Notes: generated by a model from the letters alone, not told the origin. A stretch of 63,708 nt of DNA, filler included, from 4 parts of 4 records of this genome joined end to end with filler, not necessarily neighbours in it, one strand, 5' to 3'. Shown: positions 9,558 to 56,200, counted from the whole stretch's first letter. Numbers and translations: made by a program.

Positions 9558-9562
9558 TATAA

Positions 9563-10483
9563 ATGCTTAGCATTTTTTTTAAACGCCTCTTACTAGCTAT
9601 ACCAGTTTTAATAGTTGTCGCAAGTATTACATTTTTTCTTGTAAGGCTGGCTCCGGGCGGGCCTTTTGATGCTGAAAAGGCTGTCTCAGAACAGGTTATG
9701 AAGAATCTTAATGAAGTTTATAATTTGAATGCCCCATTATCTGAACAATATTTTGATTACATGTCTGGTGTTTTGGTTGGTGATTTTGGTCCATCATTTA
9801 GATTTCCTGGTCGTTCAGTTACTGAATTAATTATGACAGGCTTGCCTGTTACATTTGAGCTAGCAATTTATTCGATGTTAATTGCTTTATTTATTGGGGT
9901 ATTATCTGGAGTTACAGCTGCTCTTAAAAGAAATACTTTTTTAGATTATATTCCAATGTCTATAGCAATGATTGGAATATGTGTACCGACTTTCTTGCTG
10001 GGTCCTTTACTGGTCTTAATTTTTGGTATCAATCTTGAACTGTTACCTGTTTCTGGTTGGGATCAATTGCCTGGAGATAAAATATTACCATCCATTACTC
10101 TTGGTTTTGCTTATGCTGCATATATTGCAAGGCTTAGTAGGGGTGGCATGCTTGAAATTCTTAATCAAGATTTTATTAGGACTGCTAGGGCTAAAGGACT
10201 TTCTGAAACAAGGGTTGTTACAAAACATGCCATGCAGGGAGGTTTGATTCCAGTTGTTTCTTTTCTAGGCCCAGCTGTAGCTGGACTTTTAGCAGGTTCA
10301 TTTGTTGTTGAAACAATTTTTCAAATTCCTGGATTGGGTAGATTTTATGTAGAGGCAGCATTTAATAGAGACTATACGATGATCTTAGGTACTACAATTT
10401 TCTTTTCTTTTATGATTGTAGTCTTTAATTTATTATCAGACATGCTTGCTTTATGGCTTAATCCAAGGTCGAGGGATGTTTAA
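9563..10483 (+). CDS. oppB: Peptide ABC transporter permease
   Basis: APGGPF, GDFGPS, EAA-loop RTARAKGL, ETIFQIPGLG. Confidence 0.9.
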   Translation: MLSIFFKRLLLAIPVLIVVASITFFLVRLAPGGPFDAEKAVSEQVMKNLNEVYNLNAPLSEQYFDYMSGVLVGDFGPSFRFPGRSVTELIMTGLPVTFELAIYSMLIALFIGVLSGVTAALKRNTFLDYIPMSIAMIGICVPTFLLGPLLVLIFGINLELLPVSGWDQLPGDKILPSITLGFAYAAYIARLSRGGMLEILNQDFIRTARAKGLSETRVVTKHAMQGGLIPVVSFLGPAVAGLLAGSFVVETIFQIPGLGRFYVEAAFNRDYTMILGTTIFFSFMIVVFNLLSDMLALWLNPRSRDV

Positions 10484-11334
10484 TGTCTAACACATCTTCA
10501 TTATGGTCAGACGCACTTTCAAGACTATTAAAAAACAAAGCTGCTGTTGCTGGTGCGCTTATATTAGTCATTTTAATAACCTTAGCTTTGCTAGCTCCAT
10601 GGATTGCTCCATACCCTTATGCATACCAAGACCTTGATTTGGGTGCCTCAGCACCATCTTCAGCACACTTACTAGGAACAGATGTCTTAGGAAGAGATTT
10701 ATTTTCTAGAATTTTGTATGGGGCTAGAATTTCACTCTTAGTTGGTTTTATTGCAACAACTGTAGCTTTAATTATCGGTGTTTCATGGGGGATTATTGCT
10801 GGTTATTTTGGTGGAAAAATTGACTCAGTTATGATGAGAATCGTTGATGTTTTATATGGCTTGCCATTTATCATTTTTATAATTCTTTTGATGGTAATTT
10901 TTGGAAGAAATCTTTGGCTTTTATTTCTTGCAATAGGCGCTATCGAATGGCTGACAATGGCAAGAATTGTCAGGGCTCAGGTTTTAACATTAAAAAATCA
11001 GGAGTTTGTATTAGCAGCTCAAGCTATGGGTGTGAGTAATTTTTCAATGTTTAGAAGGCATTTATTACCTAACATACTAGGACCAATTGCCGTTTATGCA
11101 ACTTTAACAATTCCTCAGGTTATGCTTCTTGAGAGTTTTTTAAGTTTTTTAGGTCTTGGAATTCAGCCTCCAATGAGTAGTTGGGGAACTCTAATTAAAG
11201 ATGGTGTTGAATCAATGGAGGAGTATAGCTGGCTTCTGATTTATCCAGGATTAACGTTTACCATTACGTTATTTGCATTGAATTTTTTTGGTGATGGCTT
11301 GAGAGATGCTTTGGATCCAAAAACATCTGACTAA
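10483..11334 (+). CDS. oppC: Peptide ABC transporter permease
   Basis: LGTDVLGRD, ESFLSFLGLG, GDGLRDALDP. Confidence 0.9.
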   Translation: MSNTSSLWSDALSRLLKNKAAVAGALILVILITLALLAPWIAPYPYAYQDLDLGASAPSSAHLLGTDVLGRDLFSRILYGARISLLVGFIATTVALIIGVSWGIIAGYFGGKIDSVMMRIVDVLYGLPFIIFIILLMVIFGRNLWLLFLAIGAIEWLTMARIVRAQVLTLKNQEFVLAAQAMGVSNFSMFRRHLLPNILGPIAVYATLTIPQVMLLESFLSFLGLGIQPPMSSWGTLIKDGVESMEEYSWLLIYPGLTFTITLFALNFFGDGLRDALDPKTSD

Positions 11335-14041: not shown

Positions 14042-14761
14042 ATGGCAAAAAAATATATTATTTTAGATACTGAAACAACTGGACTAGAAGTTTTGCAGGG
14101 TCATAGAATTATAGAAATAGGTGCTGTCTTAATAAATGACAGAAAAAAGTCTAAAGAACATTTTCATACCTACCTAAACCCCTCACGATTGATAGATGAA
14201 GAGGCATCAAAAGTGCATGGCATTATGAATGAAGATCTTCTTAATAAGCCTTCATTTGATGAGATTGCTGAAGAGTTTTTAGAGTTTGTAGATGGATCAA
14301 CATTGGTTATTCACAATGCCGCTTTTGATGTAGGCTTTTTAAATAATGAACTTAAATTAGCCTCTTCTAAATATCCTATGCTTCAGGATATATGTGAAAT
14401 AGAAGATTCTTTAGCAATTGCAAAAGATAAGTTTCCCGGACAAAGAAATTCTTTGGATGCACTTGCTAATCGTTTTGAAATTTCAAACTATGACAGAACT
14501 TTTCATGGAGCACTCCTCGATGCTAATATTCTTGCCGACGTCTATATGATGTTAACAGGTGGACAAAGCAAGTTTGAGTTTAGCTCTAATAGTATGAATT
14601 TAAATAACCAAAATAATGATTCTGGAAATAAAATATCTAAAGATGGTCTTAATTTAAAATTAATCAAAGCCGATAAACAAGATTTAAAAGAGCATGAACT
14701 AAGACTTCTTGATATTGAAGAAAGGAACTCTGTTAGAACATTGTGGAGAGAAATACATTGA
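14042..14761 (+). CDS. dnaQ: DNA polymerase III epsilon subunit
   Basis: LDTETTG, HNAAFD, HGALLDA DEDDh motifs, MLTGGQ clamp-binding region. Confidence 0.95.
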   Translation: MAKKYIILDTETTGLEVLQGHRIIEIGAVLINDRKKSKEHFHTYLNPSRLIDEEASKVHGIMNEDLLNKPSFDEIAEEFLEFVDGSTLVIHNAAFDVGFLNNELKLASSKYPMLQDICEIEDSLAIAKDKFPGQRNSLDALANRFEISNYDRTFHGALLDANILADVYMMLTGGQSKFEFSSNSMNLNNQNNDSGNKISKDGLNLKLIKADKQDLKEHELRLLDIEERNSVRTLWREIH

Positions 14762-16158
14762 AAAAAGTTGTAACAAGATTTGCACCAAGTCCAACAGGAA
14801 CTCTTCATATTGGAGGCTTAAGAACTGCATTATTTAATTATGTATATGCAAAGAAATATAAAGGTTTATTTTTAATTCGTATTGAGGATACTGATAAAGC
14901 AAGATCTACTAAAGAATTTGAAAAAAATATTTTAGAAAGTCTTAAATCAATTGGCCTTTCTCCTGATAAAGATCCAATTAATCAATCTTTAAGAGGGGAT
15001 ATATACAAAGCAGCCGCACAAAAAATTATTGATTCAGGTCAAGCATACTATTGTGATTGTTCAATTGAAAGATTAGATAAGATGCGGGCAGAACAACAAT
15101 CATTAGGTCAAAAACCTCAATATGATGGCAAATGTAGAAATTTAAATCTTAAAAAATCCGATAATACTGTCTTAAGACTAAAAACTCCTCTTGATGGCGA
15201 GGTTGTTGTAAAAGATTATGTTAGAGGAGATATAGTATTTAATAATTCTGAACTGGATGACTTAATAATTTTAAGGAGTGACGGTACTCCCACTTATCAC
15301 TTATGTAATGTTGTAGATGACTTCGAGCAAGGGGTAACAACAGTCATCAGGGGAGAGGATCATATTAGTAACACGCCAAGACAAATTCATATTCAAAATG
15401 CGCTTGAATACCCTAACCTTGAGTATGCTCACTTGCCCTTGGTTCTTGGTCCAGACAAAAAGCGGCTTTCCAAAAGGCATGCTGCAACAAGCCTAGAAGA
15501 GTATAAGTTAGAGGGTTATTTAGACTCAGCTATTTTAAATACTTTGGCAAGATTAGGCTGGTCTCGGGGAGACAAAGAAGTATTTTACATGGAAGATCTC
15601 ATAAGAGATTTTAAAATAACTGAAATTCAAAAAGCTGGAGCTATTTTTGATATTACTAAATTAGATTATTTAAATACTCAGCATTTGGCAAATCTAAATT
15701 TAAATCAACTAATTAAATTTTTAACGCCATTTTTAGAAGAATTAAATATAGATCTTGAGTCTCATGCAAAAAAAGAATTTTTGATAATGTCTATGCGCTC
15801 TTCTGCATCTACATTGAAAGCTATTGCTCAAAATTTAGAATGTTATTTCAAAGATATAAATGAATATGATCAAAAGGCAATAAATAAGTTTCTTGGGGGC
15901 TCATCCAAAATTCTTTCAGATCTTAAGACAAGACTATCTAAAGTCGATGATTGGAATGAAACCACTATAGATAAAATTCTACAAGATTATAGAGAAGAAG
16001 AGGGACTCAAAGTGCCCATGGTCAATCAACCTTTGAGAATTGCCATGACAGGCTCTACCAATTCACCCTCTTTGGGTTTAACACTTTCTTTATTTCATAA
16101 AGATGAAGCTATTAAGAGAATTGATAAGCTTATAAGACTTGTTGAGATAGATAATTAA
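14758..16158 (+). CDS. gltX: Glutamate--tRNA ligase
   Basis: TRFAPSPTG, HIGG, RIEDTD, RGEDH, RLSKR. Probable TTG start at 14758 with GGAGAG RBS. Confidence 0.96.
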   Translation: MKKVVTRFAPSPTGTLHIGGLRTALFNYVYAKKYKGLFLIRIEDTDKARSTKEFEKNILESLKSIGLSPDKDPINQSLRGDIYKAAAQKIIDSGQAYYCDCSIERLDKMRAEQQSLGQKPQYDGKCRNLNLKKSDNTVLRLKTPLDGEVVVKDYVRGDIVFNNSELDDLIILRSDGTPTYHLCNVVDDFEQGVTTVIRGEDHISNTPRQIHIQNALEYPNLEYAHLPLVLGPDKKRLSKRHAATSLEEYKLEGYLDSAILNTLARLGWSRGDKEVFYMEDLIRDFKITEIQKAGAIFDITKLDYLNTQHLANLNLNQLIKFLTPFLEELNIDLESHAKKEFLIMSMRSSASTLKAIAQNLECYFKDINEYDQKAINKFLGGSSKILSDLKTRLSKVDDWNETTIDKILQDYREEEGLKVPMVNQPLRIAMTGSTNSPSLGLTLSLFHKDEAIKRIDKLIRLVEIDN

Positions 16159-17008
16159 AGAAATCGTTGCATTCATTACTAACAATATCTTTTTTAATTG
16201 CATATATTGTGTATAAAAAGTTTTCACCAAGAATATTTGAAATAGTTACTCGTTCTTGATTTGCTTTCTTGCAGGTATTTTCATCTAAGATCGAGATTCC
16301 TAACTTGCTATCAACTAGGGACAAGGCTGAGTTGTAAGAATCTGTTTTTATAATGGTATTGATCATAATATTCTCATTTTTAATATACTCACTAATGCTT
16401 GATTTTTCATAAAATGAAAGCAGGTTTGTTACTTCGATAAAAGGCAGATGAGATATATCTTTTAAATCTATGTCATTACTTAAATGATAAGATTTTGGTG
16501 ATACTAATTTATGCATACCTCTTTTGAGAATAGTAGATGTTGTGTTAGATTGTGGTTTTGAGTTATAGCATATTGTTATGTCTATTTCTGGTTTATATCT
16601 ATCTTCAATCAAATCAATACTGTTTAAGTTAATGAGATTAAATTTAACTTCAGAATTTATTTTATTATATTTTTTTATTATCTGAGGGATAATGCTATCT
16701 GCAAGAGATGGAGTTGTCCCAATATTAATGTAGTCTATAGATCTTGTTTTATAAGTATTAGCTATAGCATTAAAACTCTTTAACTGACTATGAACAATAG
16801 AGGCATGTTCATATAAATCATCTGCCTCGATACTTGGAATTAACTTCTTTCCTTCTCTCAGAAATAACTTGAAATTTAAATTTTTTTCAATAACTCTTAA
16901 TGTTTTACTTACAGAAGGTTGAGAAATCTGCAATCTTTTTGCAGCAGCTGTCATTGAGGAAGTTCTATAAACCTCATAAAAAATTTCTATTTGTTTTGCT
17001 GATAACAT
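16130..17008 (-). CDS. LysR-family transcriptional regulator
   Basis: N-terminal HTH (SMTAAAKRLQISQPSVS...LFLR), 292 aa, divergent from the TonB-dependent receptor. Confidence 0.9.
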   Translation of the reverse strand: MLSAKQIEIFYEVYRTSSMTAAAKRLQISQPSVSKTLRVIEKNLNFKLFLREGKKLIPSIEADDLYEHASIVHSQLKSFNAIANTYKTRSIDYINIGTTPSLADSIIPQIIKKYNKINSEVKFNLINLNSIDLIEDRYKPEIDITICYNSKPQSNTTSTILKRGMHKLVSPKSYHLSNDIDLKDISHLPFIEVTNLLSFYEKSSISEYIKNENIMINTIIKTDSYNSALSLVDSKLGISILDENTCKKANQERVTISNILGENFLYTIYAIKKDIVSNECNDFFNYLSQQVL

Positions 17009-17010
17009 CT

Positions 17011-17025
17011 ATAACCTTTGGTTAT
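17011..17025. promoter_or_regulatory. Putative LysR recognition site
   Basis: Perfect dyad ATAACC-TTT-GGTTAT containing T-N11-A (17012/17024), 2 nt upstream of the lysR start codon, in the divergent intergenic region. Confidence 0.65.
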
Positions 17026-17056
17026 TATTATACTAATATAATAATAAAATTTATGC

Positions 17057-17086
17057 TAGACAAGAAAATGCATAGAGCTATATACT
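17057..17086 (+). promoter_or_regulatory. Putative sigma70 promoter of the TonB-dependent receptor
   Basis: TAGACA (17057-17062), 18-nt spacer, TATACT (17081-17086). Confidence 0.4.
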
Positions 17087-17122
17087 TTGTAAGATTTATT
17101 TAATATATATGGGGAAAATTTC

Positions 17123-20100
17123 ATGTTAAAAAAATTTTTATTTCTATTTCCATTGGTTATAAGTGTTTATTCTTATGCCCAAGAAGTTGAACAAGATGAG
17201 GCTGATGTTGAAGAGGTTGTAACAGTTGGTTCGCAAATTAAAGGTGCTACTATTACTGGACTACTTCCAGTTACTGTAATCACAAGCGAAGAGATAGATC
17301 AAATGGGCATTGAATCAGGCTCTGATTTAATTGAATCAATTATTTCACAGGGTGAAAATACATTAAATGAGGATCAAGATAGCACTGTTTTTAGTGCACG
17401 TGGTGATAACTCTGGCTTTAACTTAAGAAATTTTGGAGTAGGCAATACTTTAACATTGCTTAATGGAAGAAGAATGGTGAATACAGCTGGCTATAATACT
17501 GATTTTGTTGGCGGGTCTGTTGTTCCTGTTAAATCTGTAAATGCAAATGAGATACCTGTTGGAAGTGTCGCAAGAGTTGAGGTTCTAAGAGATGGAGCTT
17601 CTGCTATTTATGGTGCAGACGCAGTAGCTGGTGTGGTTAATACAGTTCTAAGAGATGATTATGATGGATTAACTGTAAGGACTAAATTTACAGCTTTTGA
17701 TCATTTTGCTGAAGAAAACTCTCAATTAAATATCACTTTTGGGAAGGATTTAGCTGATGGCGTCACTAATATTAATGCAAGCTATACATATTATGACGGA
17801 GGAGCTAAATTTGCTCGTGAAGACCCAAGATGGTTGGCTGGTAATGCAATGCTCAATGAATATATTGACTTTTGGAATCTTATACCAGGAGGAGCAGACT
17901 ATTCAGATGATGGTGCATCTAATCCTTATACAAATGCTTCATCGCAAACTCCGTGGGGCAGGTGGATACCATTAGATGGACATGAAACGGCTTGGACGAT
18001 ATACCCTATTGATATAACTGCTTATCCACTCGGTATGTTAGGAACAGATGGTGAACCTTTAATGTATGACAGGAGAAGTAAATGTCAAGAAGTCTCAGCT
18101 ATAGGAATTGGCCCTGATGGAGCTGGAGTTTCTCCTTTAAACTTATGTATTGAAGATTTAACAAGTAGTAATAGAATAAATTGGAATCATGATAGACAAG
18201 CATATTCCTCAAAAGATAGACATAATTTATTTATATATATTAATAGTGAGTTTATGGGATATGAAACTTTTTCAGAAATTGGATATTACACTGCTAAAAA
18301 TACTCGGCAATTATATGGTTCATCAACTCTGGGTACTCTTGCTGTAAGTAAAACTCAGTCTCTTATTATTCCAGAAACCAATCCGTATTTAAGAAAGATA
18401 TTTGATTATTATATGGCTTGCCAAGATGATAGCATCTCTTCAAATTTAAATTATACAACTACACCTGATAACTGTACTTTAGACGGTTCAGGCCCTGATA
18501 ATGGCTCAACATCCTCCGGCGCAGACTTTTTTAATGATAGTTATAGTACTTATGGTCCAATGGCCGCTGGTTATTTTAGATTCCCCAATCTGAGAACAAA
18601 CACTACTGAGCTTGAAACAATAAGACTGCTTCAAGGTATAAGAGGAAGTTTTAATAATTGGGATTGGGAAAGTGCTATTTTATACTCAAAAGCAACTTCA
18701 GATGATTCTACAGATGGAAGAGTTGCAATGGATTTATTAGATTATGGTTTATCAAAAACAGACGAAACTGCAATCAATCTTTTTGCTGGTGGAATGGAGG
18801 GTATGAACCTTGAGCAAGCTTTAATAACTGTAAAGAGATCTCAAGAGACTGCTCTTAGCATGATTGATTTTAAAATGACTAATGCAAATATTGGTGATAT
18901 AGGCGCTGGTCCAATTGCAATGCTGGTTGGTGCAGAGATAAGAAATGAATCCTTTGATGATGACCTTGATGATAGACTTGATGGAACAATTCAATGGTAT
19001 GATCAAACTGTTTGTACTGCTGGAGAAGGTCGTGCATATGATGCAGCTACAAATTCAATTACTTATACAGTTGCACCTGTTTGTAGTTCTGATATAACAC
19101 CAACATATGTAGAAAGAGGTAAAGGTAATAGTGATCAAACTTTCGGATCAGAGGAGGGAACTTTTCCATTTGCTTCTGCCGTAGCAATGTCAAGTCCACA
19201 ACCAGACTCTAGTGGTGACAGAACTACATCTTCTTTGTTTGTTGAATTACAAATACCAGTTTTAGAAAATTTAGATGCACAAGTTGCCATAAGACATGAA
19301 TCATTCTCAGATGTAAATTCTGCAACTGTTGGAAAAATTGCATTGGGTTATTATGTAAATCCAACTCTATCTTTTAGGGGTTCTGCGTCAACCACATATA
19401 GAGCTCCAAATTTAATTACTGTTAATTCTCCATACATTCCTAGAAATAGTAGTTATACAGATGCTCTTGGTTCATATCTTGGAAACGGGTTTGATGTAGG
19501 TGCAATTAATCCAGATACTGGAACATTATATCCCGAGGATGAAGAGCAAGTATATTGGGATATAACTGCTTATAAATTAGCGGCATCAGTCGGCAATCCA
19601 GACCTAGAGTCTGAAGAGGCTGTAAACAAATCATTTGGTTTTATATATACACCATCTGATAATTTAATTATTACTGTCGATAAATGGTCTATAGCTAAAG
19701 AGAAAACTATAGGTATTTTTGGTGCTGAAAATAATTCTGCATATGATTTACTATTAAGACTTGATGGCTCATGTGAGGGTAATTCTGCTGTTATTAGAGG
19801 TAATTCTCCAAGCCAGGCTGAGTGGGATCAATATTTTCCTGATACTAATTTGTGTCCAGCAGGACAAATACTTAGGATTGAAGATCCATTTATGAATCTT
19901 GATGATAGATATATATCAGGTACAGATTTATCTCTATTTTTTGATAAAGAAACAAGTTGGGGTGATTTTGGTTTTAGATATCAATCATCAATATTAGATA
20001 AATTTACTCAAACATCTTCTGGTCCAGCAGCTGAAATTGTTGCAGCTGATGAAGCTGGATTATTTGCAAATACGTCTGTCGATGTTACTGGATTTGAATC

Positions 20101-20506
20101 GCTTTTAGGTGTAAATGCTGTTCATAAGAAAAAAGGTTTTTATTCTTTTAGCTTTAAAAGAGGTGACTATACAACGACTATTAGAACAAATTTTAAAAGT
20201 GGATTTGAATATCCAAGTTCAAGTAAATCTGCTGGCACATCAGGTACATATTGGGAGGAGTGTTATCAATGTGATTCACCTGTAACCTTAACAGATTCTG
20301 TATATTGGCTTCGTGCTATGTCTACAACTGATTTATCAGTAGCCTATAAAACTAAGCTTAAAGGTAATAGATTAAATGCTAGATTTACTGTAAAAAATAT
20401 ATTTGATGAAAGAGCCCCAACTGTTGATAAAACCTATGGTTATTGGATGGGAGCACACAATGACTTTGGTACATACTATAATTTAGATCTTAAATTCATA
20501 TTTTAA
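17123..20506 (+). CDS. TonB-dependent receptor (large, Cys-rich loops)
   Basis: Signal peptide, TonB box EEVVTVGS, plug motifs TLTLLNGRR and RVEVLRDGASAIYGADAVAGVVN, GNPDLESE, KNIFD, C-terminal Phe. Confidence 0.93.
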   Translation: MLKKFLFLFPLVISVYSYAQEVEQDEADVEEVVTVGSQIKGATITGLLPVTVITSEEIDQMGIESGSDLIESIISQGENTLNEDQDSTVFSARGDNSGFNLRNFGVGNTLTLLNGRRMVNTAGYNTDFVGGSVVPVKSVNANEIPVGSVARVEVLRDGASAIYGADAVAGVVNTVLRDDYDGLTVRTKFTAFDHFAEENSQLNITFGKDLADGVTNINASYTYYDGGAKFAREDPRWLAGNAMLNEYIDFWNLIPGGADYSDDGASNPYTNASSQTPWGRWIPLDGHETAWTIYPIDITAYPLGMLGTDGEPLMYDRRSKCQEVSAIGIGPDGAGVSPLNLCIEDLTSSNRINWNHDRQAYSSKDRHNLFIYINSEFMGYETFSEIGYYTAKNTRQLYGSSTLGTLAVSKTQSLIIPETNPYLRKIFDYYMACQDDSISSNLNYTTTPDNCTLDGSGPDNGSTSSGADFFNDSYSTYGPMAAGYFRFPNLRTNTTELETIRLLQGIRGSFNNWDWESAILYSKATSDDSTDGRVAMDLLDYGLSKTDETAINLFAGGMEGMNLEQALITVKRSQETALSMIDFKMTNANIGDIGAGPIAMLVGAEIRNESFDDDLDDRLDGTIQWYDQTVCTAGEGRAYDAATNSITYTVAPVCSSDITPTYVERGKGNSDQTFGSEEGTFPFASAVAMSSPQPDSSGDRTTSSLFVELQIPVLENLDAQVAIRHESFSDVNSATVGKIALGYYVNPTLSFRGSASTTYRAPNLITVNSPYIPRNSSYTDALGSYLGNGFDVGAINPDTGTLYPEDEEQVYWDITAYKLAASVGNPDLESEEAVNKSFGFIYTPSDNLIITVDKWSIAKEKTIGIFGAENNSAYDLLLRLDGSCEGNSAVIRGNSPSQAEWDQYFPDTNLCPAGQILRIEDPFMNLDDRYISGTDLSLFFDKETSWGDFGFRYQSSILDKFTQTSSGPAAEIVAADEAGLFANTSVDVTGFESLLGVNAVHKKKGFYSFSFKRGDYTTTIRTNFKSGFEYPSSSKSAGTSGTYWEECYQCDSPVTLTDSVYWLRAMSTTDLSVAYKTKLKGNRLNARFTVKNIFDERAPTVDKTYGYWMGAHNDFGTYYNLDLKFIF

Positions 20507-20523
20507 GTTTGGTTAATTAATTT

Positions 20524-20554
20524 AAAAAGGGAGTTTTTTGGCTCCCTTTTTTTT
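20524..20554. terminator. Rho-independent terminator after the TonB receptor
   Basis: AAAAAGGGAG-TTTTTTGG-CTCCCTTTTTTTT hairpin. Confidence 0.8.
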
Positions 20555-20571
20555 AAAGGCGGTAAATAAAA

Positions 20572-22008
20572 ATGAACGCATATAGAAAAAAAGGTTTTTT
20601 AATTGGTGTATTTGTTTTTTTGATGCTGTTAATTCTGCCTATTCCAAACGGATTAAATGCTTCCGCATGGTCAGTTGCGGCTGTTGTAACATTAATGGCT
20701 ATTTGGTGGGCAACTGAAGCAATACCAGTTCCTGTTACAGCACTATTGCCATTAGCCTTATTTCCTTTGCTTGATGTAGTTTCCTTTAAAGAGGCTGCAT
20801 TGCCATATGCAAATCCAAATATTTATCTTTTTTTAGGGGGTTTTATGTTAGCTCTTGCTATTGAAAGATCTGGACTACATAAGCGTATGGCACTTCATAT
20901 GATTATTGCTTCTGGGTCAGATGGGTCAAAGCTGATCGGTGGTTTTATGATAGTTGCTGCGTTGATAAGTATGTTTGTAATGAACACATCTACAACATTA
21001 ATGCTTTTACCAATTGGCTTAGCTGTATGTTCTGTTGTAAGCACAACTATTCCTGGTATTAGCTCTTCTGAAACTAAATTTTTTGATACAGCTCTAATGC
21101 TTGGTATTGCTTATGCAGCTACCATTGGTGGGATGTCTACGCTGGTTGGAACTGCCCCAAATATCGTCTTTAGTGCCTTTATGCAAGAAACTTATAATGT
21201 TGAAATTTCAATGTCTGATTGGATGACATTAGGAGTTCCATTAGCTGTCATTATGCTTTTTTCTGCATGGATTGTTTTAACAAAATTTGTATTCCCAACC
21301 TCATTTGTTACAACTAATGAGACTAGAACCTATTTAAAAGAAATGCTCTTAGACTTGGGACCTCTTTCAAAAGATGAGATTAAAATTTCTATTATTTTTG
21401 CATTAACGGCACTTGCATGGATCACAAGATCTATTATAGATAACTATGAGATGCTTAGTGGATTAACTGATGCGGGAATAGCTATTATCTCTGCTATTTT
21501 ATTATTTATTATACCTTCATCCTCTCATAAGGGTGAGCTCTTAAATTGGGAAAAGAGCAATGAGCTGCCATGGGGCCTCTTAATTTTATTTGGAGGAGGG
21601 CTTTCTATTGCTGCTCAAATTAATTCAAGTGGTCTAGGGGTATGGATTGGAGAGAGCCTAAGTGTTTTGGGATCAGTTCCTCCAATATTCTTAATCTTAG
21701 CAGTAGCAGCATTGATTATTTTCTTAACTGAAATAACAAGCAATGTTGCAACTACCTCAACCTTTTTACCTGTTTTTGGAGCAGTTGCAGCAGGTATTGG
21801 AGTATTGCCAGTTTCGCTTACTGTTCCAGTGTGCTTGGCTGCAAGTTGTGCATTCATGCTACCGGTAGCAACTCCTCCAAATGCTATAGTTTATGGTTCT
21901 GGTAAATTTACAATAGCAACAATGATGAAAGCAGGATTTTTATTAAATATTATTGGTATCTTTGTAGTAACTTTGTTTGCTTACTTTATAGCTCCACAAG
22001 TTTTTTAA
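20572..22008 (+). CDS. DASS/SLC13-family sodium:anion (di/tricarboxylate or sulfate) symporter
   Basis: WWATEAIP, LFLGGF, GLHKR, GTAPN, WGLLILFGGG, TEITSNVAT, FMLPVATPPNAIV; multi-TM. Confidence 0.92.
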   Translation: MNAYRKKGFLIGVFVFLMLLILPIPNGLNASAWSVAAVVTLMAIWWATEAIPVPVTALLPLALFPLLDVVSFKEAALPYANPNIYLFLGGFMLALAIERSGLHKRMALHMIIASGSDGSKLIGGFMIVAALISMFVMNTSTTLMLLPIGLAVCSVVSTTIPGISSSETKFFDTALMLGIAYAATIGGMSTLVGTAPNIVFSAFMQETYNVEISMSDWMTLGVPLAVIMLFSAWIVLTKFVFPTSFVTTNETRTYLKEMLLDLGPLSKDEIKISIIFALTALAWITRSIIDNYEMLSGLTDAGIAIISAILLFIIPSSSHKGELLNWEKSNELPWGLLILFGGGLSIAAQINSSGLGVWIGESLSVLGSVPPIFLILAVAALIIFLTEITSNVATTSTFLPVFGAVAAGIGVLPVSLTVPVCLAASCAFMLPVATPPNAIVYGSGKFTIATMMKAGFLLNIIGIFVVTLFAYFIAPQVF

Positions 22009-23756
22009 TGCATGCTTTGAAATTTTGTCTAATATTTTTTCTTTGTTTATTAGTTGAATCTAGAAGTTATATAGATTACGAGTCACCTTATCATCCAGTC
22101 GTTGGAACAGAAGGCATGGTTGTTACTCAAAACTATTTATCATCTGAAATTGGAATTGAAATTTTAAATAAAGGAGGAAATGCAATTGATGCTGCTGTAG
22201 CCGTTGGTTTTTCCCTAGCAGCTACTCTTCCAAGAGCAGGTAACTTAGGCGGTGGTGGCTTCATGCTAGTTTACATTAAAAAAAATGATGAAATTTTTTT
22301 TATAGATTATCGCAGCTCATCTCCTCTTAACTCAAATTTAGAAAATATATTCAATCTGATAACTGATACAAATACTAAATTAGAATTATTGCCAAATAGT
22401 TTTGATAAAAATAAGTATGAACTTGTTAATACTGGTTACAAAGCGCCTGCAGTACCAGGAACTGTTGCAGGTTTGCTTGAAGCACATAAACAATTTGGAA
22501 AACTTACACTAGAAGAAATTTTACAACCTGTTATCAAGCAAGCGACTAATGGAGTCCCAGTTACCTATGATTTACATAAAGCAATTGAAAGCACTCCTAG
22601 ATTAAAATCTGATCATGAATCAAGAAAAATTTACTTTAAAGATAACAAACCATTAAGAGAAAGTTCAATTTTTATAGTACCTGGTTTGGCAAAAACAATT
22701 TCTTTAATTGCTAAAAATGGTAGAGATGGTTTTTATAAAGGTGAAACCGCAGATAAGATTATTACAGCAATGAATAATAATGGCGGATTATTTTCAGAGA
22801 AGGATTTAATAAATTATAAACCCTATACAAGAAAGCCAATCTCAGTAAATTATCGAGGTAATAAAGTTTATACAGCCGGACCACCTTCTGGAGGTGGTAT
22901 TACTCTTTTAACAGCCTTAAGAATTTTAGAACAATTTGATTTATCTAAACATGAAAGCAATTCAAGTACGACATATCATCTTATTTCAGAGGCAATCAGA
23001 AGAGGTCATAATAATAGATCTAGTGAAGTTGGTGACCCACTTTTTTACAATGTACCTGTAAACGAATTGCTCTCTAAAGACAGAATAAAGGAGTTATCTC
23101 AAAGCATCAGCTTAAAGAAAGCTAGCAAAGCTTCAATAATCAAACCTCTTAAGGTTATTAATGAAAGTAGAGATACAACTCACTACTCTATAATAGATTC
23201 TGATGGTAATGCTGTATCTAATACTTATACTCTTGGTGCATCATTTGGTTCAGGTGTAACAATTCCCGACACTGGTATTTTAATGAATAATCAAATGAAT
23301 AATTTAGTATATCAATCAGGAGATGTTACAAAAGTAGGGAGGAGGGTGAGTCCAGGAAATAAATTTCAACCCGGTAAAAGACCTATGAGCACTATGGCAC
23401 CTGTAATGGTGTTTAATAAAAATAATCAATTATCTTTAATCACCGGCTCCCCTGGTGGTTCTTACATACCTGCTGCTATATTAAGAGTAGTTTCTGGTGT
23501 AATTGATTTTAATTTGCAGATAGGCGACGCGACAATGCTACCGAGAGTTCATAAGGATTGGCCATATATTGGGCTAGATTATGAAAAAGCTATTAGCTCA
23601 GATGTTTTGTTCAAATTAAATAAAATTGGTCATAAAACAGAGGCAAACAAGACAATGGGAAGTACCCAAAGTATTCATATTGTTGACGAGATAAGATATG
23701 GTTTTGCTGATTTAAGAAGGCCAAATTCTGGTGTTGTAAAGCAACTTAATAATTAA
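22008..23756 (+). CDS. Gamma-glutamyltransferase-family Ntn amidohydrolase with an atypical donor site
   Basis: GGNAIDAAVA, GGGGFM, DYR, VPGTVAG, PPSGGG, autocleavage TTHYS (Thr390), GSPGG, DLRR; hydrophobic N-terminus. Alpha-amino-binding residues are substituted (see findings), so ggt is not assigned. Confidence 0.9.
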   Translation: MHALKFCLIFFLCLLVESRSYIDYESPYHPVVGTEGMVVTQNYLSSEIGIEILNKGGNAIDAAVAVGFSLAATLPRAGNLGGGGFMLVYIKKNDEIFFIDYRSSSPLNSNLENIFNLITDTNTKLELLPNSFDKNKYELVNTGYKAPAVPGTVAGLLEAHKQFGKLTLEEILQPVIKQATNGVPVTYDLHKAIESTPRLKSDHESRKIYFKDNKPLRESSIFIVPGLAKTISLIAKNGRDGFYKGETADKIITAMNNNGGLFSEKDLINYKPYTRKPISVNYRGNKVYTAGPPSGGGITLLTALRILEQFDLSKHESNSSTTYHLISEAIRRGHNNRSSEVGDPLFYNVPVNELLSKDRIKELSQSISLKKASKASIIKPLKVINESRDTTHYSIIDSDGNAVSNTYTLGASFGSGVTIPDTGILMNNQMNNLVYQSGDVTKVGRRVSPGNKFQPGKRPMSTMAPVMVFNKNNQLSLITGSPGGSYIPAAILRVVSGVIDFNLQIGDATMLPRVHKDWPYIGLDYEKAISSDVLFKLNKIGHKTEANKTMGSTQSIHIVDEIRYGFADLRRPNSGVVKQLNN

Positions 23757-23757
23757 T

Positions 23758-24546
23758 TTAGGTTTCTATTTCGTTCAAAGGCATTGCTGCAATATTGAAT
23801 CCTGCGTCAACATAAGTAATTTCACCTGTAATGCCACTTGCATAATCAGAGCATAAAAATGCTGCAGTGTTTCCAACTTCCTCTGTTGTTACTGTTCTAC
23901 CTAAAGGTGCTCTATCTGAATGCTGGGAAAGCATCTTTCTAAAATTTTTAACTCCTGATGCAGCAAGAGTTTTTATTGGTCCGGCTGATATAGCATTTAC
24001 TCTAACTCCATCTCTGCCCATAGATGCAGCTAAAAATCTTGTATTAGCCTCTAAACTTGCTTTTGCTAGCCCCATAACGTTGTAGTTCGGCATTGTCTGA
24101 ACAGAGCCTAAATAAGATAATGTTAAAAGAGCAGAAGATTCATTTAATAAAGGCTTTGCTGCTTTAGCTAATGCAGTAAAACTATATGAGCTTATTTCGT
24201 GAGCAGTATTAAAACCTTCCCTTGTTGTTACATCTACAAAATTACCCTCTAACTGATCAGCTGGAGCAAAACCAATCGAATGAACCAAACCATCAAACGT
24301 TACCCAATTTTGTTGAACAAATTCAAAGCATTTAGATATTGATTGATCGTTGGCGACATCACACTCAATTAAAAGCTCAATACCAAGATCATCAGCTATG
24401 GGTTTAATATTTTTTAAAAGTCTTTCATTTTGATAGGCAAGAGCAATAGTTGCTCCTTGAGCAATCATACTCTTTGCTATACCAGCTGCAATTGAATATT
24501 TATTAGCAAGACCAAAGATAATAATTTTTTTATTTTTTAATAACAT
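23758..24546 (-). CDS. fabI: Enoyl-ACP reductase FabI
   Basis: GLANKYSIA, VHSIGFAP, YNVMGLAKASLE, NAISAGPIKTLAA. Start taken at ATG 24546. Confidence 0.96.
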   Translation of the reverse strand: MLLKNKKIIIFGLANKYSIAAGIAKSMIAQGATIALAYQNERLLKNIKPIADDLGIELLIECDVANDQSISKCFEFVQQNWVTFDGLVHSIGFAPADQLEGNFVDVTTREGFNTAHEISSYSFTALAKAAKPLLNESSALLTLSYLGSVQTMPNYNVMGLAKASLEANTRFLAASMGRDGVRVNAISAGPIKTLAASGVKNFRKMLSQHSDRAPLGRTVTTEEVGNTAAFLCSDYASGITGEITYVDAGFNIAAMPLNEIET

Positions 24547-24697
24547 TTTTTTGATTATTTTTATTTTATATACCAATTATATACCCATGAATAATAAAAA
24601 CTAATTCTTTAATTTAATTGACAAAAATAACCTTTATGGAACAAAATAAATGAAAACAGATATAATTTCTGTATACAAAATTTCATAGGGGAAAATT

Positions 24698-27600
24698 ATG
24701 AAAAATAAAATGAATAAAATTTTTGCATTGGTGCTTTTTTCTTCAGTAATGTTTGCGCAAGATGTTGAGGAAGTGGTAGAGGAAAATGCGGCTGATGAAA
24801 ATATCGAAGAGGTTGTAACAACTGGTTCAAGGATTGCCAGAGATCCGTTAGAGTCGGCACAACCAATCACAATATTAGAAGGCGATATGATTAGGAATAT
24901 GGGTCTAACAGCAGCTTCTGCTTTAACAGACCTTCCTGAGATTGACTCAGTAGCCTCAATTTCTGGTGATCAATCATCATTAGGGGCTGGACAATCTGTT
25001 GCATCAAATTTTGGTCTTAATTCCTCTAGAACTGTTACTTTGGTAAACGGAAGAAGATTTGTAGGATCATCTGGAATATCTTCAGGTGGTGGATCAGGTG
25101 GTGCTGTTAACTTAGCTAATGTTCCAACAGCTCTAATTGAAAGAATAGAGGTTGTGCCAGTTGGTGGTGCAGCTATTTACGGTGCTGACGCTATTGCTGG
25201 TGTGGTTAACTATGTACTAAAAGATGATTTTGAAGGTGCCGAGTTAATGATTGATAGATATGACTATAACGGTCTTGAAGATGATCTTGGTTTTGATTTA
25301 ACAATAGGTGGAAACTTTGCTGATGGCAGAGGAAATATTATTTTGAATGCTGCCATTGAAAGCAGGGATACAGTTCATGTGGAACAAGCAAATAGCAGAT
25401 ATAAAGATTGTCTACATGGTGGCTTTTACAAACTTGCTGCTGATACTGGGCAATCACAATTCTTTGGTTATGGTGATTATTACCCACAAGAAGTTGAGGC
25501 AACGAGAGGAGCTGAGTATCAAAACGAGGATGGTTGGCTGCCAATGGGTGTAGATGGTCATATGTGTAGCACACTAACATCTAATCCTGTTGAAGGTCTT
25601 GTTGCTGCGTATGGAGATAATGAAATTGGATCTGTTGGTGCATTCTGGAATGGAAACTTAAATGGTTCTGGAACTGCTCCAGCATGGTATAGATGGGGAG
25701 CACCTGGTCAGCTTGTACCATTTTTCCCCGGGACTCCTACAGAAACCACGGGTGCCTACTATACTGTTGGAGCTGATATTAAGAGAATTAATACCGACAA
25801 TATATTAAGAGCAGGTTATGAGAAGAAAAATATTTCAGTTTTCTTAAAATATGATATCAATGATAATACAGAATTTTTCTTTGATGTTTATCAAAATAAT
25901 TATTATGCAAGTGATACTGGTGAAGATTCTGGAGCTCATTATTCAGATTACTGGTTTGGTACTGCAGACAGTGATAATTGTACCTCTGATGGAGATGCAG
26001 CTGCATGGTCTATCAAAGATACTAATTGTTGGTCTTCATCTACTTCAATACCTGTTTTTACAGATGATCCTTTTTTAACTGCAGACTCTGTTGCAATTCT
26101 TGAGGCTGAAGGATTTGGTCCTAAGTATGGTGCTAATGGAGCATTGTGTGATGGAGAGCCATGTGGAACTCCAGCAATGATGCAAAAACTTTGGAAAGAT
26201 TTATCACCAGGTGGAAGAGGCGATCAATTTGAAGATAGAGCTAAAACTCAGTTTTATTCAATGGGCTTAACTGGTAATTTTGATATGTTTGATAAGAACT
26301 ATTCATACGAAGTTGGTTATAGTGAAGGTGAAACAAGAACTGATTCAACCTCTCCTGCAATCATTGCTGCAAGATTTATGGCTGCATTAGATTATAAAAT
26401 TAATCCAGATACAGGAGAAATTGATTGTAGATATAATTTTGATAATACTGTTGATTTACCCGCTTATATAGTTCCAGGTGGAGATTACTCCAATCTTGGT
26501 GGCGGTGTTGGCCTGGGTGCTACAGGTAGTTGTGTTCCATTAAATCCATGGGGTTATGACGTTGCAGCTAATGCAGATGCTTTAGATTATATGTCATCTT
26601 ATGGAAAAGAAGGAGCAACAATAACTCAGGAATCTACTTTTGCTTCAATGGCAGGAACTCTTGTTGATTTGCCTGCAGGACCATTAGAGTTTGTTGTTGG
26701 TTTTGACAACCGTAAAGAAGCTGCTAAATATGAAGCTGACCAACTTACTAAGTTTTATGTTGGCTTAAGAGGATCTGCTGTTTTAGATGGAAGTGGTGAG
26801 TATGAAGTGGAATCTCAATATTTTGAAATATCTGTTCCTGTTATATCAGGTATTCCTTATGTTCAAGATTTAAGGTTCGACTATGGTTATCGTGAAATTG
26901 ATAATAAAAACTCAGTTGGTTCAAGGTCATATGATGTTAGTGCTTTGAGTGTATTTTGGAGAGTTAATGATCAGCTTGCAGTAAGAGCTTCAGATCAAAC
27001 AACAACTAAGGCTCCAACAATTGATCAGCTTTTTGCGCCACTTAACCCAAGTTTTGAGCAAGCTAATGATCCTTGTGATGCAAGATATATTACCGATGGT
27101 GATAATCCTGCAAACAGAGCAGCAAATTGTGCTGCAGCAGGAATTACACAACCATTTTCTAGTTTTGTAGCTGGTGGAACGGTACAAGGTAAAGACGGTG
27201 GTAATAGATTCTTAGTTGATGAGAATGCAGAGACTTTCTCTTTAGGAGTTGTATATACGCCTAATTTCGATTTCATGGATCGTGTTGGTAATGTCTCTTT
27301 AACAGCTGATTATGTTGAAATCAACCTTAAAGATTACGTAACTACTTTTGATCTAGAAGACTTTATGGTTGCTTGTTATGATGCCGCAACTTATCCAAAT
27401 ACTTTTTGTAATAATTTTGAAAGATCTTCAGATGGCAATGTTATAGACTTTGAAACTGGTCCTGGTAACTCAGGTATCATTGACTTTGCAACCTATATTT
27501 ATAAATTAAATTGGAACAAAGAATATAGCTTTGGAGAATTATCTCTTAACTGGAGAGCAATGCAGCAAAAAGAAAGACTTGAAGCTGATTCAGGGGATCC

Positions 27601-27973
27601 TGCTGATTTAATAGATTCAACAGGTGATGCATCTAACCCAGAATGGACTCAAGATTTAACTCTTGGCTATTCTAAGGGTAAGCATTATGCATACTATAAA
27701 GCTGATTTTGTAGCTAGTGGATATATTGATAAAGTTGAAACTGATACTAGAGCAGATAAATACTTAGATAGAGCTGGCAATCCAATAACTGAATATGATG
27801 GATATTGGTTTGATACTGTTGGCTATGTATATGAGCATAATGATAATCTTCAATTTATAGTAAAAGTTAATAACCCTCTTGACCATGATGGTAGCGAAAG
27901 TAGGTACCAAGAAGAGAGAGCAGTTAGGTTACTTGGAAGAAGTATAACGACTTCTCTATATTATAAATTCTAA
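24698..27973 (+). CDS. TonB-dependent receptor (large, Cys-rich loops)
   Basis: Signal peptide, TonB box EEVVTTGSRI, RTVTLVNGRR, IERIEVVPVGGAAIYGADAIAGVVN, DPC...NC motif, C-terminal YKF. Confidence 0.93.
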   Translation: MKNKMNKIFALVLFSSVMFAQDVEEVVEENAADENIEEVVTTGSRIARDPLESAQPITILEGDMIRNMGLTAASALTDLPEIDSVASISGDQSSLGAGQSVASNFGLNSSRTVTLVNGRRFVGSSGISSGGGSGGAVNLANVPTALIERIEVVPVGGAAIYGADAIAGVVNYVLKDDFEGAELMIDRYDYNGLEDDLGFDLTIGGNFADGRGNIILNAAIESRDTVHVEQANSRYKDCLHGGFYKLAADTGQSQFFGYGDYYPQEVEATRGAEYQNEDGWLPMGVDGHMCSTLTSNPVEGLVAAYGDNEIGSVGAFWNGNLNGSGTAPAWYRWGAPGQLVPFFPGTPTETTGAYYTVGADIKRINTDNILRAGYEKKNISVFLKYDINDNTEFFFDVYQNNYYASDTGEDSGAHYSDYWFGTADSDNCTSDGDAAAWSIKDTNCWSSSTSIPVFTDDPFLTADSVAILEAEGFGPKYGANGALCDGEPCGTPAMMQKLWKDLSPGGRGDQFEDRAKTQFYSMGLTGNFDMFDKNYSYEVGYSEGETRTDSTSPAIIAARFMAALDYKINPDTGEIDCRYNFDNTVDLPAYIVPGGDYSNLGGGVGLGATGSCVPLNPWGYDVAANADALDYMSSYGKEGATITQESTFASMAGTLVDLPAGPLEFVVGFDNRKEAAKYEADQLTKFYVGLRGSAVLDGSGEYEVESQYFEISVPVISGIPYVQDLRFDYGYREIDNKNSVGSRSYDVSALSVFWRVNDQLAVRASDQTTTKAPTIDQLFAPLNPSFEQANDPCDARYITDGDNPANRAANCAAAGITQPFSSFVAGGTVQGKDGGNRFLVDENAETFSLGVVYTPNFDFMDRVGNVSLTADYVEINLKDYVTTFDLEDFMVACYDAATYPNTFCNNFERSSDGNVIDFETGPGNSGIIDFATYIYKLNWNKEYSFGELSLNWRAMQQKERLEADSGDPADLIDSTGDASNPEWTQDLTLGYSKGKHYAYYKADFVASGYIDKVETDTRADKYLDRAGNPITEYDGYWFDTVGYVYEHNDNLQFIVKVNNPLDHDGSESRYQEERAVRLLGRSITTSLYYKF

Positions 27974-27989
27974 GATAATAATAAACTTT

Positions 27990-28017
27990 AAGGGAGGCAA
28001 TAGCCTCCCTTTTTTTT
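27990..28017 (+). terminator. Rho-independent terminator
   Basis: AAGGGAGGC-AATA-GCCTCCCTT followed by a T-tract. Confidence 0.9.
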
Positions 28018-55870: not shown

Positions 55871-56200
55871 GATATTGATTGGCAGGGTGCTGACCAAATA
55901 AAAAATAAAAAGTTAAATTACAAATTGATTACTTTTTTTATACTTCCTCCAAGCAAAAAAGTTTTATTTGAGAGATTGTCAAATAGAGATATGAAAGACA
56001 AATTAATTGTAGAAGAAAGAATGAAAGAATTTAGTAGAGATGTGCTGCACTGGATAAATTATGATTATGTAATTATAAATGATGATCTTGAAGAGTGCTA
56101 TGCAAAAATTAACAATTTAATTGAAGCAGAAGTTAATAATGGCTCAAAAGATTACGATAAAGAGTTTATCAGAAAACATGTCGATTTATTAACTACCTGA
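55871..56200 (+). CDS. gmk: Guanylate kinase, C-terminal part (5'-truncated)
   Basis: [27 protein letters not shown]; convergent with rsmA as in Alphaproteobacteria. Confidence 0.9.

Follow-up and report, generated by a model that had tools for sequence, protein, structure and literature searches.

Which compound would a bacterium process with a TonB-dependent outer-membrane receptor, a Na+-coupled carboxylate carrier and a hydrolase of the gamma-glutamyltransferase (GGT) family that are encoded side by side? The question is raised by positions 16130-23756 of a DNA stretch of 63,708 nucleotides (nt), hereafter the window, which consists of 4 parts from 4 records joined with filler, and along whose whole length all coordinates run. 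Its G+C content is about 32%, and the nearest public relatives of its DNA are SAR86 single-cell and metagenome assemblies. A gene for a LysR-type regulator of 292 amino acids (aa; 16130-17008, minus strand) is divergent from that of a 1127-aa TonB-dependent receptor (17123-20506, plus strand). The latter is followed, on the plus strand, by genes for a 478-aa DASS/SLC13-type Na+-coupled di/tricarboxylate symporter (20572-22008) and for a 582-aa GGT-fold N-terminal nucleophile (Ntn) hydrolase with predicted export (22008-23756). The coordinates of these open reading frames (ORFs) match exactly those of an earlier, sequence-only reading of the same DNA. The four gene identities proposed there were borne out by Pfam and NCBIfam profile searches: PF00126 (HTH_1) and PF03466 (LysR_substrate) for the regulator, the Pfam plug and barrel for the receptor, TIGR00785 and PF00939 for the carrier, and PF01019 and TIGR00066 for the enzyme.

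The sequence-only reading had called the four genes accessory. They are instead a conserved SAR86 locus, usually with an exported M20D amidohydrolase as well. Real and conserved, the locus is also represented in environmental RNA libraries and makes a coherent uptake-and-processing unit. As to what it processes, we put at roughly 0.45 the probability that an acidic amide, whose acyl part carries no free alpha-ammonium, is hydrolysed in the periplasm and that a carboxylate is then imported. SAR86 belong to the most abundant of surface-ocean bacteria, and the cargo of their many TonB receptors is largely unknown. The locus provides a concrete pairing of receptor, carrier and enzyme, in which the enzyme pocket narrows the chemistry of the cargo.

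The donor pocket of the GGT-family enzyme

Judged by profiles and catalytic residues, the window enzyme is a member of the GGT family (PF01019; TIGR00066; MEROPS T03). It scores 480 bits against PF01019 (curated family cut-off 27) and 481.7 bits against the gamma-glutamyltransferase equivalog TIGR00066 (cut-off 357.85), and it matches E. coli GGT (PDB 2e0w) with an E-value of 3.8e-113, with the same fold and length and with the lid-loop segment present. The enzyme looks exported: its N-terminus, MHALKFCLIFFLCLLVESRS followed by SYIDY, resembles a signal peptide and lies ahead of the region alignable with mature E. coli GGT. Pocket residues were read from the alignment to 2e0w, which is ungapped from the nucleophile past residue 433, and the codons were checked. 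E. coli residues T391, T409, R114, S462, G483 and G484 are all kept. The autoprocessing and catalytic set comprises T390 (23175-23177), T408 and the oxyanion hole G483-G484, and the alpha-carboxylate site is retained as R102, S461 and T462 (23391-23393), the last in place of Ser463. The alpha-amino subsite is altered: N411 has become G410 (23235-23237), D432 and D433 have become N431 and N432 (23298-23303), and Q429 stands at position 430. In the lid loop, Tyr444 is replaced by V443 (23334-23336). The enzyme thus lacks two features of canonical glutathione hydrolases/transpeptidases (EC 3.4.19.13 / 2.3.2.2), the alpha-amino site and the lid-loop aromatic residue, and has the Asn at the Asp433 position (N432) that is a feature of class IV cephalosporin acylases. 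The remodelling of the donor pocket that had been read at this position from the sequence is therefore upheld (D433 to N432, N411 to G410).

The significance of these residues can be gauged from published work. A review of bacterial GGTs (PMC8062742) assigns Asn411, Gln430 and Asp433 to the donor pocket, with Asp433 touching the alpha-amino group, and describes a bond between lid-loop Tyr444 and Asn411. In the same review, Asn at position 433 is attributed to class IV cephalosporin acylases, and the E. coli D433N mutant is reported to have lost transpeptidation, to have gained glutaryl-7-aminocephalosporanic acid (glutaryl-7-ACA) acylase activity and to have retained 82% of its gamma-glutamyl hydrolysis. 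According to a 2024 study, such a GGT variant cleaves many glutaryl conjugates (PMC11421214). The link to aminoless acyl groups made in the sequence-only reading thus has a printed basis (PMC8062742, PMC11421214), and its term "amino-blind" was an overstatement, as D433N loses only transpeptidation in that account (PMC8062742). Because the mutant retains 82% of the hydrolysis, Asn433 does not exclude ordinary gamma-glutamyl donors.

This leaves room for an account that we consider less likely, though a serious competitor: hydrolase-only salvage of ordinary gamma-glutamyl compounds, such as glutathione, oxidized glutathione (GSSG), gamma-Glu-Cys and gamma-glutamyl peptides. The receptor would take up these compounds and the enzyme would free glutamate without wasteful transpeptidation, yielding reduced sulfur and nitrogen for SAR86. 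The TIGR00066 score, the intact alpha-carboxylate site and catalytic residues, and the hydrolysis retained by D433N all suit this account, as do the carriers of the glutamate/aspartate (Glu/Asp) type, of the DAACS family, which adjoin the enzyme gene in sister loci. It also accords with papers on SAR86 that treat ggt simply as a route from glutathione to cysteine, assign it to sulfur obtained from glutathione and describe assimilatory sulfate reduction as absent (PMC3358033, PMC11582366). The account, however, gives no role to a carboxylate-type DASS carrier with glutamate or Cys-Gly as products, and it meets a further difficulty in the paralogues. Three 1.3-Mb SAR86 genomes, two of them closed chromosomes, contain three PF01019 matches apiece. 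Separately from the variant, both closed chromosomes encode an exported GGT whose pocket is of the canonical N-E-D-D-F/Y type (Asn, Glu, Asp, Asp, Phe, Ser, Ser), so that glutathione hydrolysis needs no second enzyme. Since these two complete genomes encode a canonical GGT elsewhere, the window-type enzyme would be a specialised paralogue, and since the canonical one can serve the route from glutathione to cysteine, the variant arguably does something else. The annotation of SAR86 ggt as glutathione use needs correcting: in two complete genomes there are three paralogues with different pockets, only one of which is canonical.

The third paralogue of both closed chromosomes is highly divergent and has neither Arg114 nor a lid loop. 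At positions 114, 411, 430 and 432 it carries Ser, Tyr, Arg and Glu (genomes G001 and G002; loci L075, 6308-8005, and L077, 6300-7982), and its neighbours in L075 are carboxylesterase, esterase, thioesterase and BCCT carrier genes.

Hydrolase-only salvage would also have to account for the constancy of the altered subsite. Across related loci, positions 411, 430, 432, 433, 462 and 463 are occupied by Gly, Gln, Asn, Asn, Ser and Thr in all 65 orthologous ORFs longer than 430 aa (one per locus, with the broken genes of seven loci excluded). This identity spans 40-99% protein identity, a Sphingomonas protein at 40% included. Position 444, which is Y or F in canonical paralogues, is non-aromatic in all 65 and variable (R, E, K, I, V, Q, N, S, D). 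The related loci contain three further GGT-family ORFs, with canonical or B. subtilis-like pocket residues. For a check that does not depend on a motif, an exhaustive HMMER search of 1.84 billion proteins was used, and the best 150 of the 50%-identity representatives were typed. Asp433 was present in 130 of these 150, a further point against salvage, and Asn in 14, all of which had Gly or Ser in place of Asn411; the full pattern (Arg114, Gly/Ser411, Gln430, Asn433, Thr463) was found in 9. In a FastTree phylogeny, the ten rows with the strict pattern sit within a 13-tip group in which every tip has Asn433, and the Asn433 label (14 rows) requires 3 changes on the tree, compared to a mean of 13.5 in shuffles. 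The variant pocket occurs in 1 of 201 sampled species of Alphaproteobacteria, which is the starting genome itself, and in 2 of 300 scored species of Gammaproteobacteria, one being again the starting genome; with flanks of just 1.5 kb, the loci from these two surveys reveal nothing of the gene context. In the ESM Atlas, only "glutathione hydrolase proenzyme" clusters came up.

Recurrence of the gene neighbourhood

Conservation was counted over 72 loci with the variant enzyme, each count taking only those loci with sufficient DNA on the relevant side. An orthologous receptor (>300 bits) was present in 54 of 57 loci, the remaining 3 holding frameshifted pieces. The DASS gene was found in 52 of 55, a DASS or DAACS carrier gene in 50 of 51, and an exported M20D amidohydrolase in 36 of the 50 loci with flank. 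Most related loci belong to SAR86 and share the gltX and fabI flanks. In most of the SAR86 loci the end of DASS and the start of GGT coincide or lie within a few nt of each other; in the window, the TAATG stop/start overlap at 22006-22010 (plus strand) can be read directly in the sequence, in agreement with the coupling proposed earlier.

Shared flanks of this kind allow for an explanation without any common task, in which slow rearrangement in streamlined SAR86 genomes has kept neighbours together while the pocket of a spare paralogue drifted neutrally. It draws on the origin of most related loci in one taxonomic order, on their common gltX and fabI flanks, and on the terminator that divides the receptor gene from the rest. 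It also draws on the fact that M20D and thiolase-like neighbours are explicable by an inversion that kept the flanks. Several findings speak against it. In at least 12 loci of a second gammaproteobacterial lineage, some of them in metagenome-assembled genomes (MAGs) labelled Woeseia, the four gene families recur in another order, DASS(-) LysR(-) / receptor(+) GGT(+) DAACS(+), and between unrelated flanks. The neighbourhood test set out with the sequence-only reading is thus positive, the four genes being found together in SAR86 and, rearranged, in this second lineage. One alphaproteobacterial genome, a Sphingomonas, contains twice a trio of DAACS, variant GGT and B. subtilis-like GGT. In one copy (L072) the adjoining receptor is 29% identical to the window receptor over the full length, and in the flanks of the other (L078) no recognisable receptor was found. 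Steroidobacteraceae MAG proteins of 859 aa consist of the variant GGT fused to an alpha/beta-hydrolase-fold domain, which is 32% identical (E 7e-35) to an exported hydrolase-fold protein encoded by a separate gene in the loci of one SAR86 sublineage. As a control, the 6 loci around GGT paralogues with canonical or other pockets were inspected, and no such receptor, DASS or DAACS was found at any of them. Together with the conserved stop/start overlap and LysR box, and with pocket residues whose invariance over 40-99% identity is not that of drift, these findings lead us to disfavour chance adjacency, to which we give very little credence.

Returning to the coherent uptake-and-processing unit, several related loci differ from the window in gene content. 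The SAR86 sublineage just mentioned (L028, L037, L047, L050, L053, L055, L064, L065, L070) has the extra exported hydrolase-fold gene, of 285 aa, in the gap between receptor and DASS, and its product weakly matches the PHB-depolymerase esterase family. The nucleophile elbow is GHGAG in all 9 SAR86 copies and GHSAG in the Steroidobacteraceae fusion; because of this Ser to Gly replacement, the SAR86 protein may be non-catalytic. Most other SAR86 loci (L003-L006, L013 and others) have M20D, thiolase-like and small methyltransferase genes between GGT and fabI. The window and its closest relatives, L001 and L002, are without these three, and no match to M20D was found anywhere in the window. One SAR86 sublineage (L028, L037, L053, L055, L065 and L070, as compared with L013 and others) has the receptor-DASS-GGT core in inverted orientation between its flanks, with gltX on one side and M20D plus the thiolase-like gene on the other. 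Because such an inversion between fixed flanks explains why the M20D, thiolase-like and methyltransferase genes are adjacent in both SAR86 arrangements, these three were set aside as cluster members and are not taken as independent support. The nearest solved relatives of the M20D protein are HmrA, an Xaa-Arg dipeptidase and an AbgB-like protein, which are not decisive for its substrate. In L056, L060 and L073 the whole locus is in pieces, several genes being affected at once, and this looks like frameshift-rich assembly and not like gene decay.

Carriers, receptor and control

The window DASS protein scores 289.9 bits against TIGR00785 (cut-off 198.6), and its best solved relatives are NaCT (SLC13A5), NaDC1 and VcINDY (275-203 bits). 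Its second hairpin-tip motif, TSNVATT, is identical to that of NaCT and NaDC1, while the sulfate carrier NaS1 has SNP; the two tips read MNT and SNV, compared to SNT and SNV in NaCT, with Ser replaced by Met in the first. Because NaCT, NaDC1 and VcINDY are nearest and TSNVATT is shared, unlike in NaS1, a di- or tricarboxylate is its likely cargo. The DAACS carriers beside the GGT gene in sister lineages match aspartate and glutamate transporters best. Their motif DRILDM.R is kept at all 13 gammaproteobacterial loci that have this carrier, and at the two Sphingomonas copies as well. From work on GltPh, we take the Asp and Arg of this motif to bind the amino group and the side-chain carboxylate of the substrate. 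A second motif reads NMDGT in the 13 gammaproteobacterial loci and GMDGA in the two Sphingomonas copies. As a Glu/Asp-type carrier adjoins the enzyme gene in these lineages, glutamate or aspartate is probably released as well. The dicarboxylate product suggested by the sequence-only reading thus stands as far as the carboxylate-type DASS is concerned, and is probably too narrow where a plain dicarboxylate was to be the only product. Both carriers would find a substrate if the compound were built as acid-CO-NH-Glu or were an N-blocked gamma-glutamyl chain, but DAACS alone if it were a plain gamma-glutamyl peptide.

Pfam places the receptor plug at residues 49-171 and the barrel at residues 680-1093. 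The signal peptide, a TonB-box-like EEVVTVG (found by eye) and the plug are encoded within 17123-17642, the barrel by 17643-20506. With an aromatic residue at its C-terminus (...KFIF), the protein has the feature set of a TonB-dependent receptor. Over its full length it is 29-37% identical to the receptors that occupy the corresponding position in ten other loci, and 33-35% identical to TBDR2 over about 220 aa. Its named matches are weak and lie with siderophore and B12 receptors at the level of the plug only, so that deducing the cargo from receptor relatives was abandoned. The same matches are the starting point for siderophore recycling, the specific candidate of the sequence-only reading and a special case of amide hydrolysis followed by carboxylate import. 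The substrates named in that reading (succinyl or glutaryl amides, desferrioxamine, poly-gamma-Glu) are guesses. Here a succinyl- or citryl-amide siderophore would be imported, its amide cut, and succinate or citrate taken up by DASS, whose closest solved relative is the citrate carrier NaCT; an aminoless pocket would suit a succinyl or citryl group. We find this highly improbable. The receptor has 1127 aa as against about 590-725 aa for the matched solved siderophore and B12 receptors, with similarity in the plug only. Control appears to be by LysR (no search for a Fur box was made), and no iron-release or reductase genes are present in any locus examined. The Glu/Asp carriers of the sister loci would be unexplained, and the alpha-carboxylate site, by analogy with the GGT fold, appears spaced for a five-carbon acyl group.

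Compared with L001, the window GGT protein is 99% identical and the flanking DNA 80-86% identical, yet the receptor proteins are just 32% identical. DNA similarity ends at 17642, the end of the plug, and restarts at 20514, just past the stop codon. The window barrel is an allele found in none of the related loci compared, and at least four receptor types occupy this position in different lineages. To judge from the sequence, the barrel-coding part (17643-20513) behaves as a cassette swapped between close relatives, and such swapping may tune the compound taken up or help to escape phages.

Between the LysR and receptor genes lies a LysR box of the T-N11-A type, the dyad ATAAC-N5-GTTAT (ATAACCTTTGGTTAT; 17011-17025, no strand assigned), 3 nt from the LysR start codon. 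It is followed by a sigma-70-like promoter for the receptor gene (TAGACA-N18-TATACT, 17057-17086, plus strand), a consensus match at 10 out of 12 positions. The dyad has one match in the 63.7 kb, compared to a mean of 0.19 in shuffles; in the window alone it is weak evidence, because 17 of 100 shuffles also contain at least one match. It recurs, with the central 5 nt varying, in 25 of 29 homologous LysR-receptor spacers, which substantiates the dyad operator noted from the sequence, and in 19 of the 29 (SAR86) a TAGACA-N16-19 -10-like box stands at a fixed offset from it. Dyad and promoter together would constitute the classical layout of a LysR-regulated divergent promoter, with binding presumed from this arrangement.

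Between the receptor and DASS genes, at 20524-20554 (plus strand), an intrinsic-terminator-like hairpin, AAAAAGGGAG..CTCCCTTTTT, with a 12-pair stem is followed by a T run. Compared with shuffles, it has a z-score of just -1.72, but across related loci the receptor gene is followed by a GGGAG(C)...(G)CTCCC hairpin and a T run irrespective of what comes next (DASS, GGT or the hydrolase-fold gene), in keeping with the terminator that had been noted at this place. A hairpin of the form AAGGGAG..CTCCCTT is also found at 27990-28011, directly 3' of a second large receptor gene (24698-27973). This type has two matches only in the 63.7 kb (mean 0.01 in shuffles). The hairpin may act as a conserved attenuator or 3'-end element, through which receptor mRNA would come to outnumber the message downstream of it. 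A consensus scan of the plus strand over 18686-20800 revealed no promoter-like site.

Parts of the stretch are present in 16 runs recorded as RNA, and 19 runs from 12 studies contain it. Four RNA libraries from four studies, in which DNA may be present, were compared as contigs, and the receptor gene is covered in all four runs. The DASS/GGT junction is bridged by two contigs from two studies; being contigs, these are no proof of transcription or of a single transcript. Among the pieces listed from the four libraries, no contig bridges 20470-20529, and contigs end at 20470 in two runs, which hints weakly, at best, at a 3' end. Word depths in these runs were higher for receptor contigs than for DASS or GGT contigs (in X1, for example, 71-106 as against about 7); such depths cannot rank genes, and nothing is inferred from them.

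The wider gene order in the window is gloB, rnhA, dnaQ, gltX, LysR(-), TonB receptor, DASS, GGT, fabI(-) and the second large receptor gene. gltX (14743-16158) and fabI (23758-24576, minus strand) were assigned by Pfam and NCBIfam. The 3' end of the LysR gene overlaps gltX by 29 nt, and the GGT and fabI genes end 1 nt apart (23756 and 23758). Further upstream, at 7956-11334, there are genes for a family-5 solute-binding protein and two Opp-type permeases, that is, a peptide-type ABC importer with no adjoining ATPase gene, which may be the "glutathione or oligopeptide transporter" of the SAR86 literature. These are followed by a gene for an MltD-like lytic transglycosylase and by gloB. At 55925-56200, a 91-aa ORF whose match to guanylate kinase is confined to the C-terminal third (profile positions 116-182) borders a block of sugar-modification and glycosyltransferase genes (41-55 kb).

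A candidate route and its relation to known systems

The proposed acidic-amide route would run as follows. LysR would control the unit through the T-N11-A box upstream of the receptor promoter, and the receptor would import a compound with a gamma-glutamyl-like acyl group and no free alpha-ammonium. One candidate cargo is a gamma-glutamyl unit in N-acylated form, such as folyl-poly-gamma-glutamates, peptidoglycan stem peptides or the interior of gamma-glutamyl chains contain; alternatively, it might be a C4-C6 dicarboxyl amide of the aminoless or hydroxy kind (glutaryl, succinyl, citryl). In the periplasm, the GGT-fold enzyme would hydrolyse the amide without transpeptidation, and the DASS carrier would import the di/tricarboxylate released. 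In the sister lineages, glutamate or aspartate set free in this way would enter through the Glu/Asp-type DAACS. Owing to the hairpin, receptor mRNA is probably more plentiful than that of carrier and enzyme.

Several observations weigh against this route. The enzyme passes the TIGR00066 equivalog cut-off, and D433N keeps most of its gamma-glutamyl hydrolysis. The Glu/Asp-type DAACS of sister loci fits simple glutamate release equally well. The related loci were gathered by peptide patterns including LMNNQMNN, which favour the Asn-Asn motif, and the branch uniting the N433 group is weakly supported (SH-like 47, FastTree). A LysR orthologue is present in 29 of the 55 loci with at least 6 kb upstream and absent from 26. 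A terminator separates the receptor gene from the DASS-GGT pair, with no bridging RNA contig listed. Finally, the agreement in gene order within SAR86 could be plain inheritance, since most loci are from SAR86 and have common flanks.

It is tempting to go one step further, and the step is a doubtful one: SAR86 and a few other marine Proteobacteria may possess a dedicated route from the outer membrane to the cytoplasm for N-blocked gamma-glutamyl compounds, with folyl-poly-gamma-glutamates, oligo-gamma-glutamates and peptidoglycan stem peptides as candidates. At its centre would stand a natural GGT-fold amidase in which alpha-amino recognition is lost, and if such an enzyme exists, it would be a new physiological specificity within a textbook enzyme family. 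If aminoless or N-blocked amides are indeed cleaved, class IV "cephalosporin acylases" would gain a natural function, and the enzyme would be a ready-made biocatalyst of the kind now made by mutagenesis.

A literature search, with Supplementary Figure S7 of PMC3358033 (SAR86 receptor neighbourhoods) lying outside it, found among the titles and abstracts listed no published account of such a TonB-receptor/GGT/carrier locus and nothing on TonB-dependent degradation of poly-gamma-glutamate; PMC3400609 contains neither "glutamyl" nor "glutathione". The individual components nevertheless resemble known systems. The enzyme shares with E. coli Ggt (PDB 2dbu, 2e0w) an exported proenzyme, the Thr nucleophile, Thr409, the Gly-Gly oxyanion hole, Arg114 and Ser462. 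The E. coli gene, however, stands alone, while that of the window lies behind genes for a TonB receptor and a DASS carrier. By description, it is also like E. coli GGT D433N and the class IV glutaryl-7-ACA acylases in having Asn at Asp433. Those are laboratory mutants or enzymes known only for an industrial side activity, and Gly411, Thr463 and a gene context of this kind are not described for them. B. subtilis GGT, which degrades polyglutamate, and B. anthracis CapD, a weak PDB match, are likewise GGT-fold enzymes that act on gamma-glutamyl chains. The window GGT differs from both in its lid-loop segment and its Gly, Gln, Asn subsite, and no polyglutamate genes are found near it. The variant stands, in both Sphingomonas copies, in tandem with a paralogue of the B. 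subtilis kind, which has Glu411, Glu/Gln430 and Asp433 and lacks a lid loop. The carrier differs from VcINDY, NaDC1 and NaCT in its first hairpin tip, M-N-T as against S-N-T.

At the level of the locus, the combination of receptor, periplasmic hydrolase, inner-membrane carrier and local regulator is that of utilisation loci centred on a TonB receptor in marine and plant-associated Proteobacteria. For SAR86, loci of receptor plus enzyme are described by Dupont et al. with lipid-related examples, and in that section of the paper no receptor is paired with a GGT-family enzyme (PMC3358033). In its layout, the window also resembles E. coli abgR-abgABT, with a divergent LysR gene beside genes for the import and cleavage of an N-acyl-glutamate. 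In the abg system, which serves p-aminobenzoyl-glutamate utilisation, the LysR regulator gene is divergent from the import and splitting genes. Most SAR86 loci add to this likeness an exported M20D protein of the family that contains AbgB (TIGR01891; match to PDB 3io1). Membership of the abgRABT type does not extend to the window, which is without the M20D pair and AbgT, and no AbgT was seen at the related loci. Instead, uptake in the window is assigned to a TonB receptor and DASS, and the central enzyme is a GGT-fold hydrolase.

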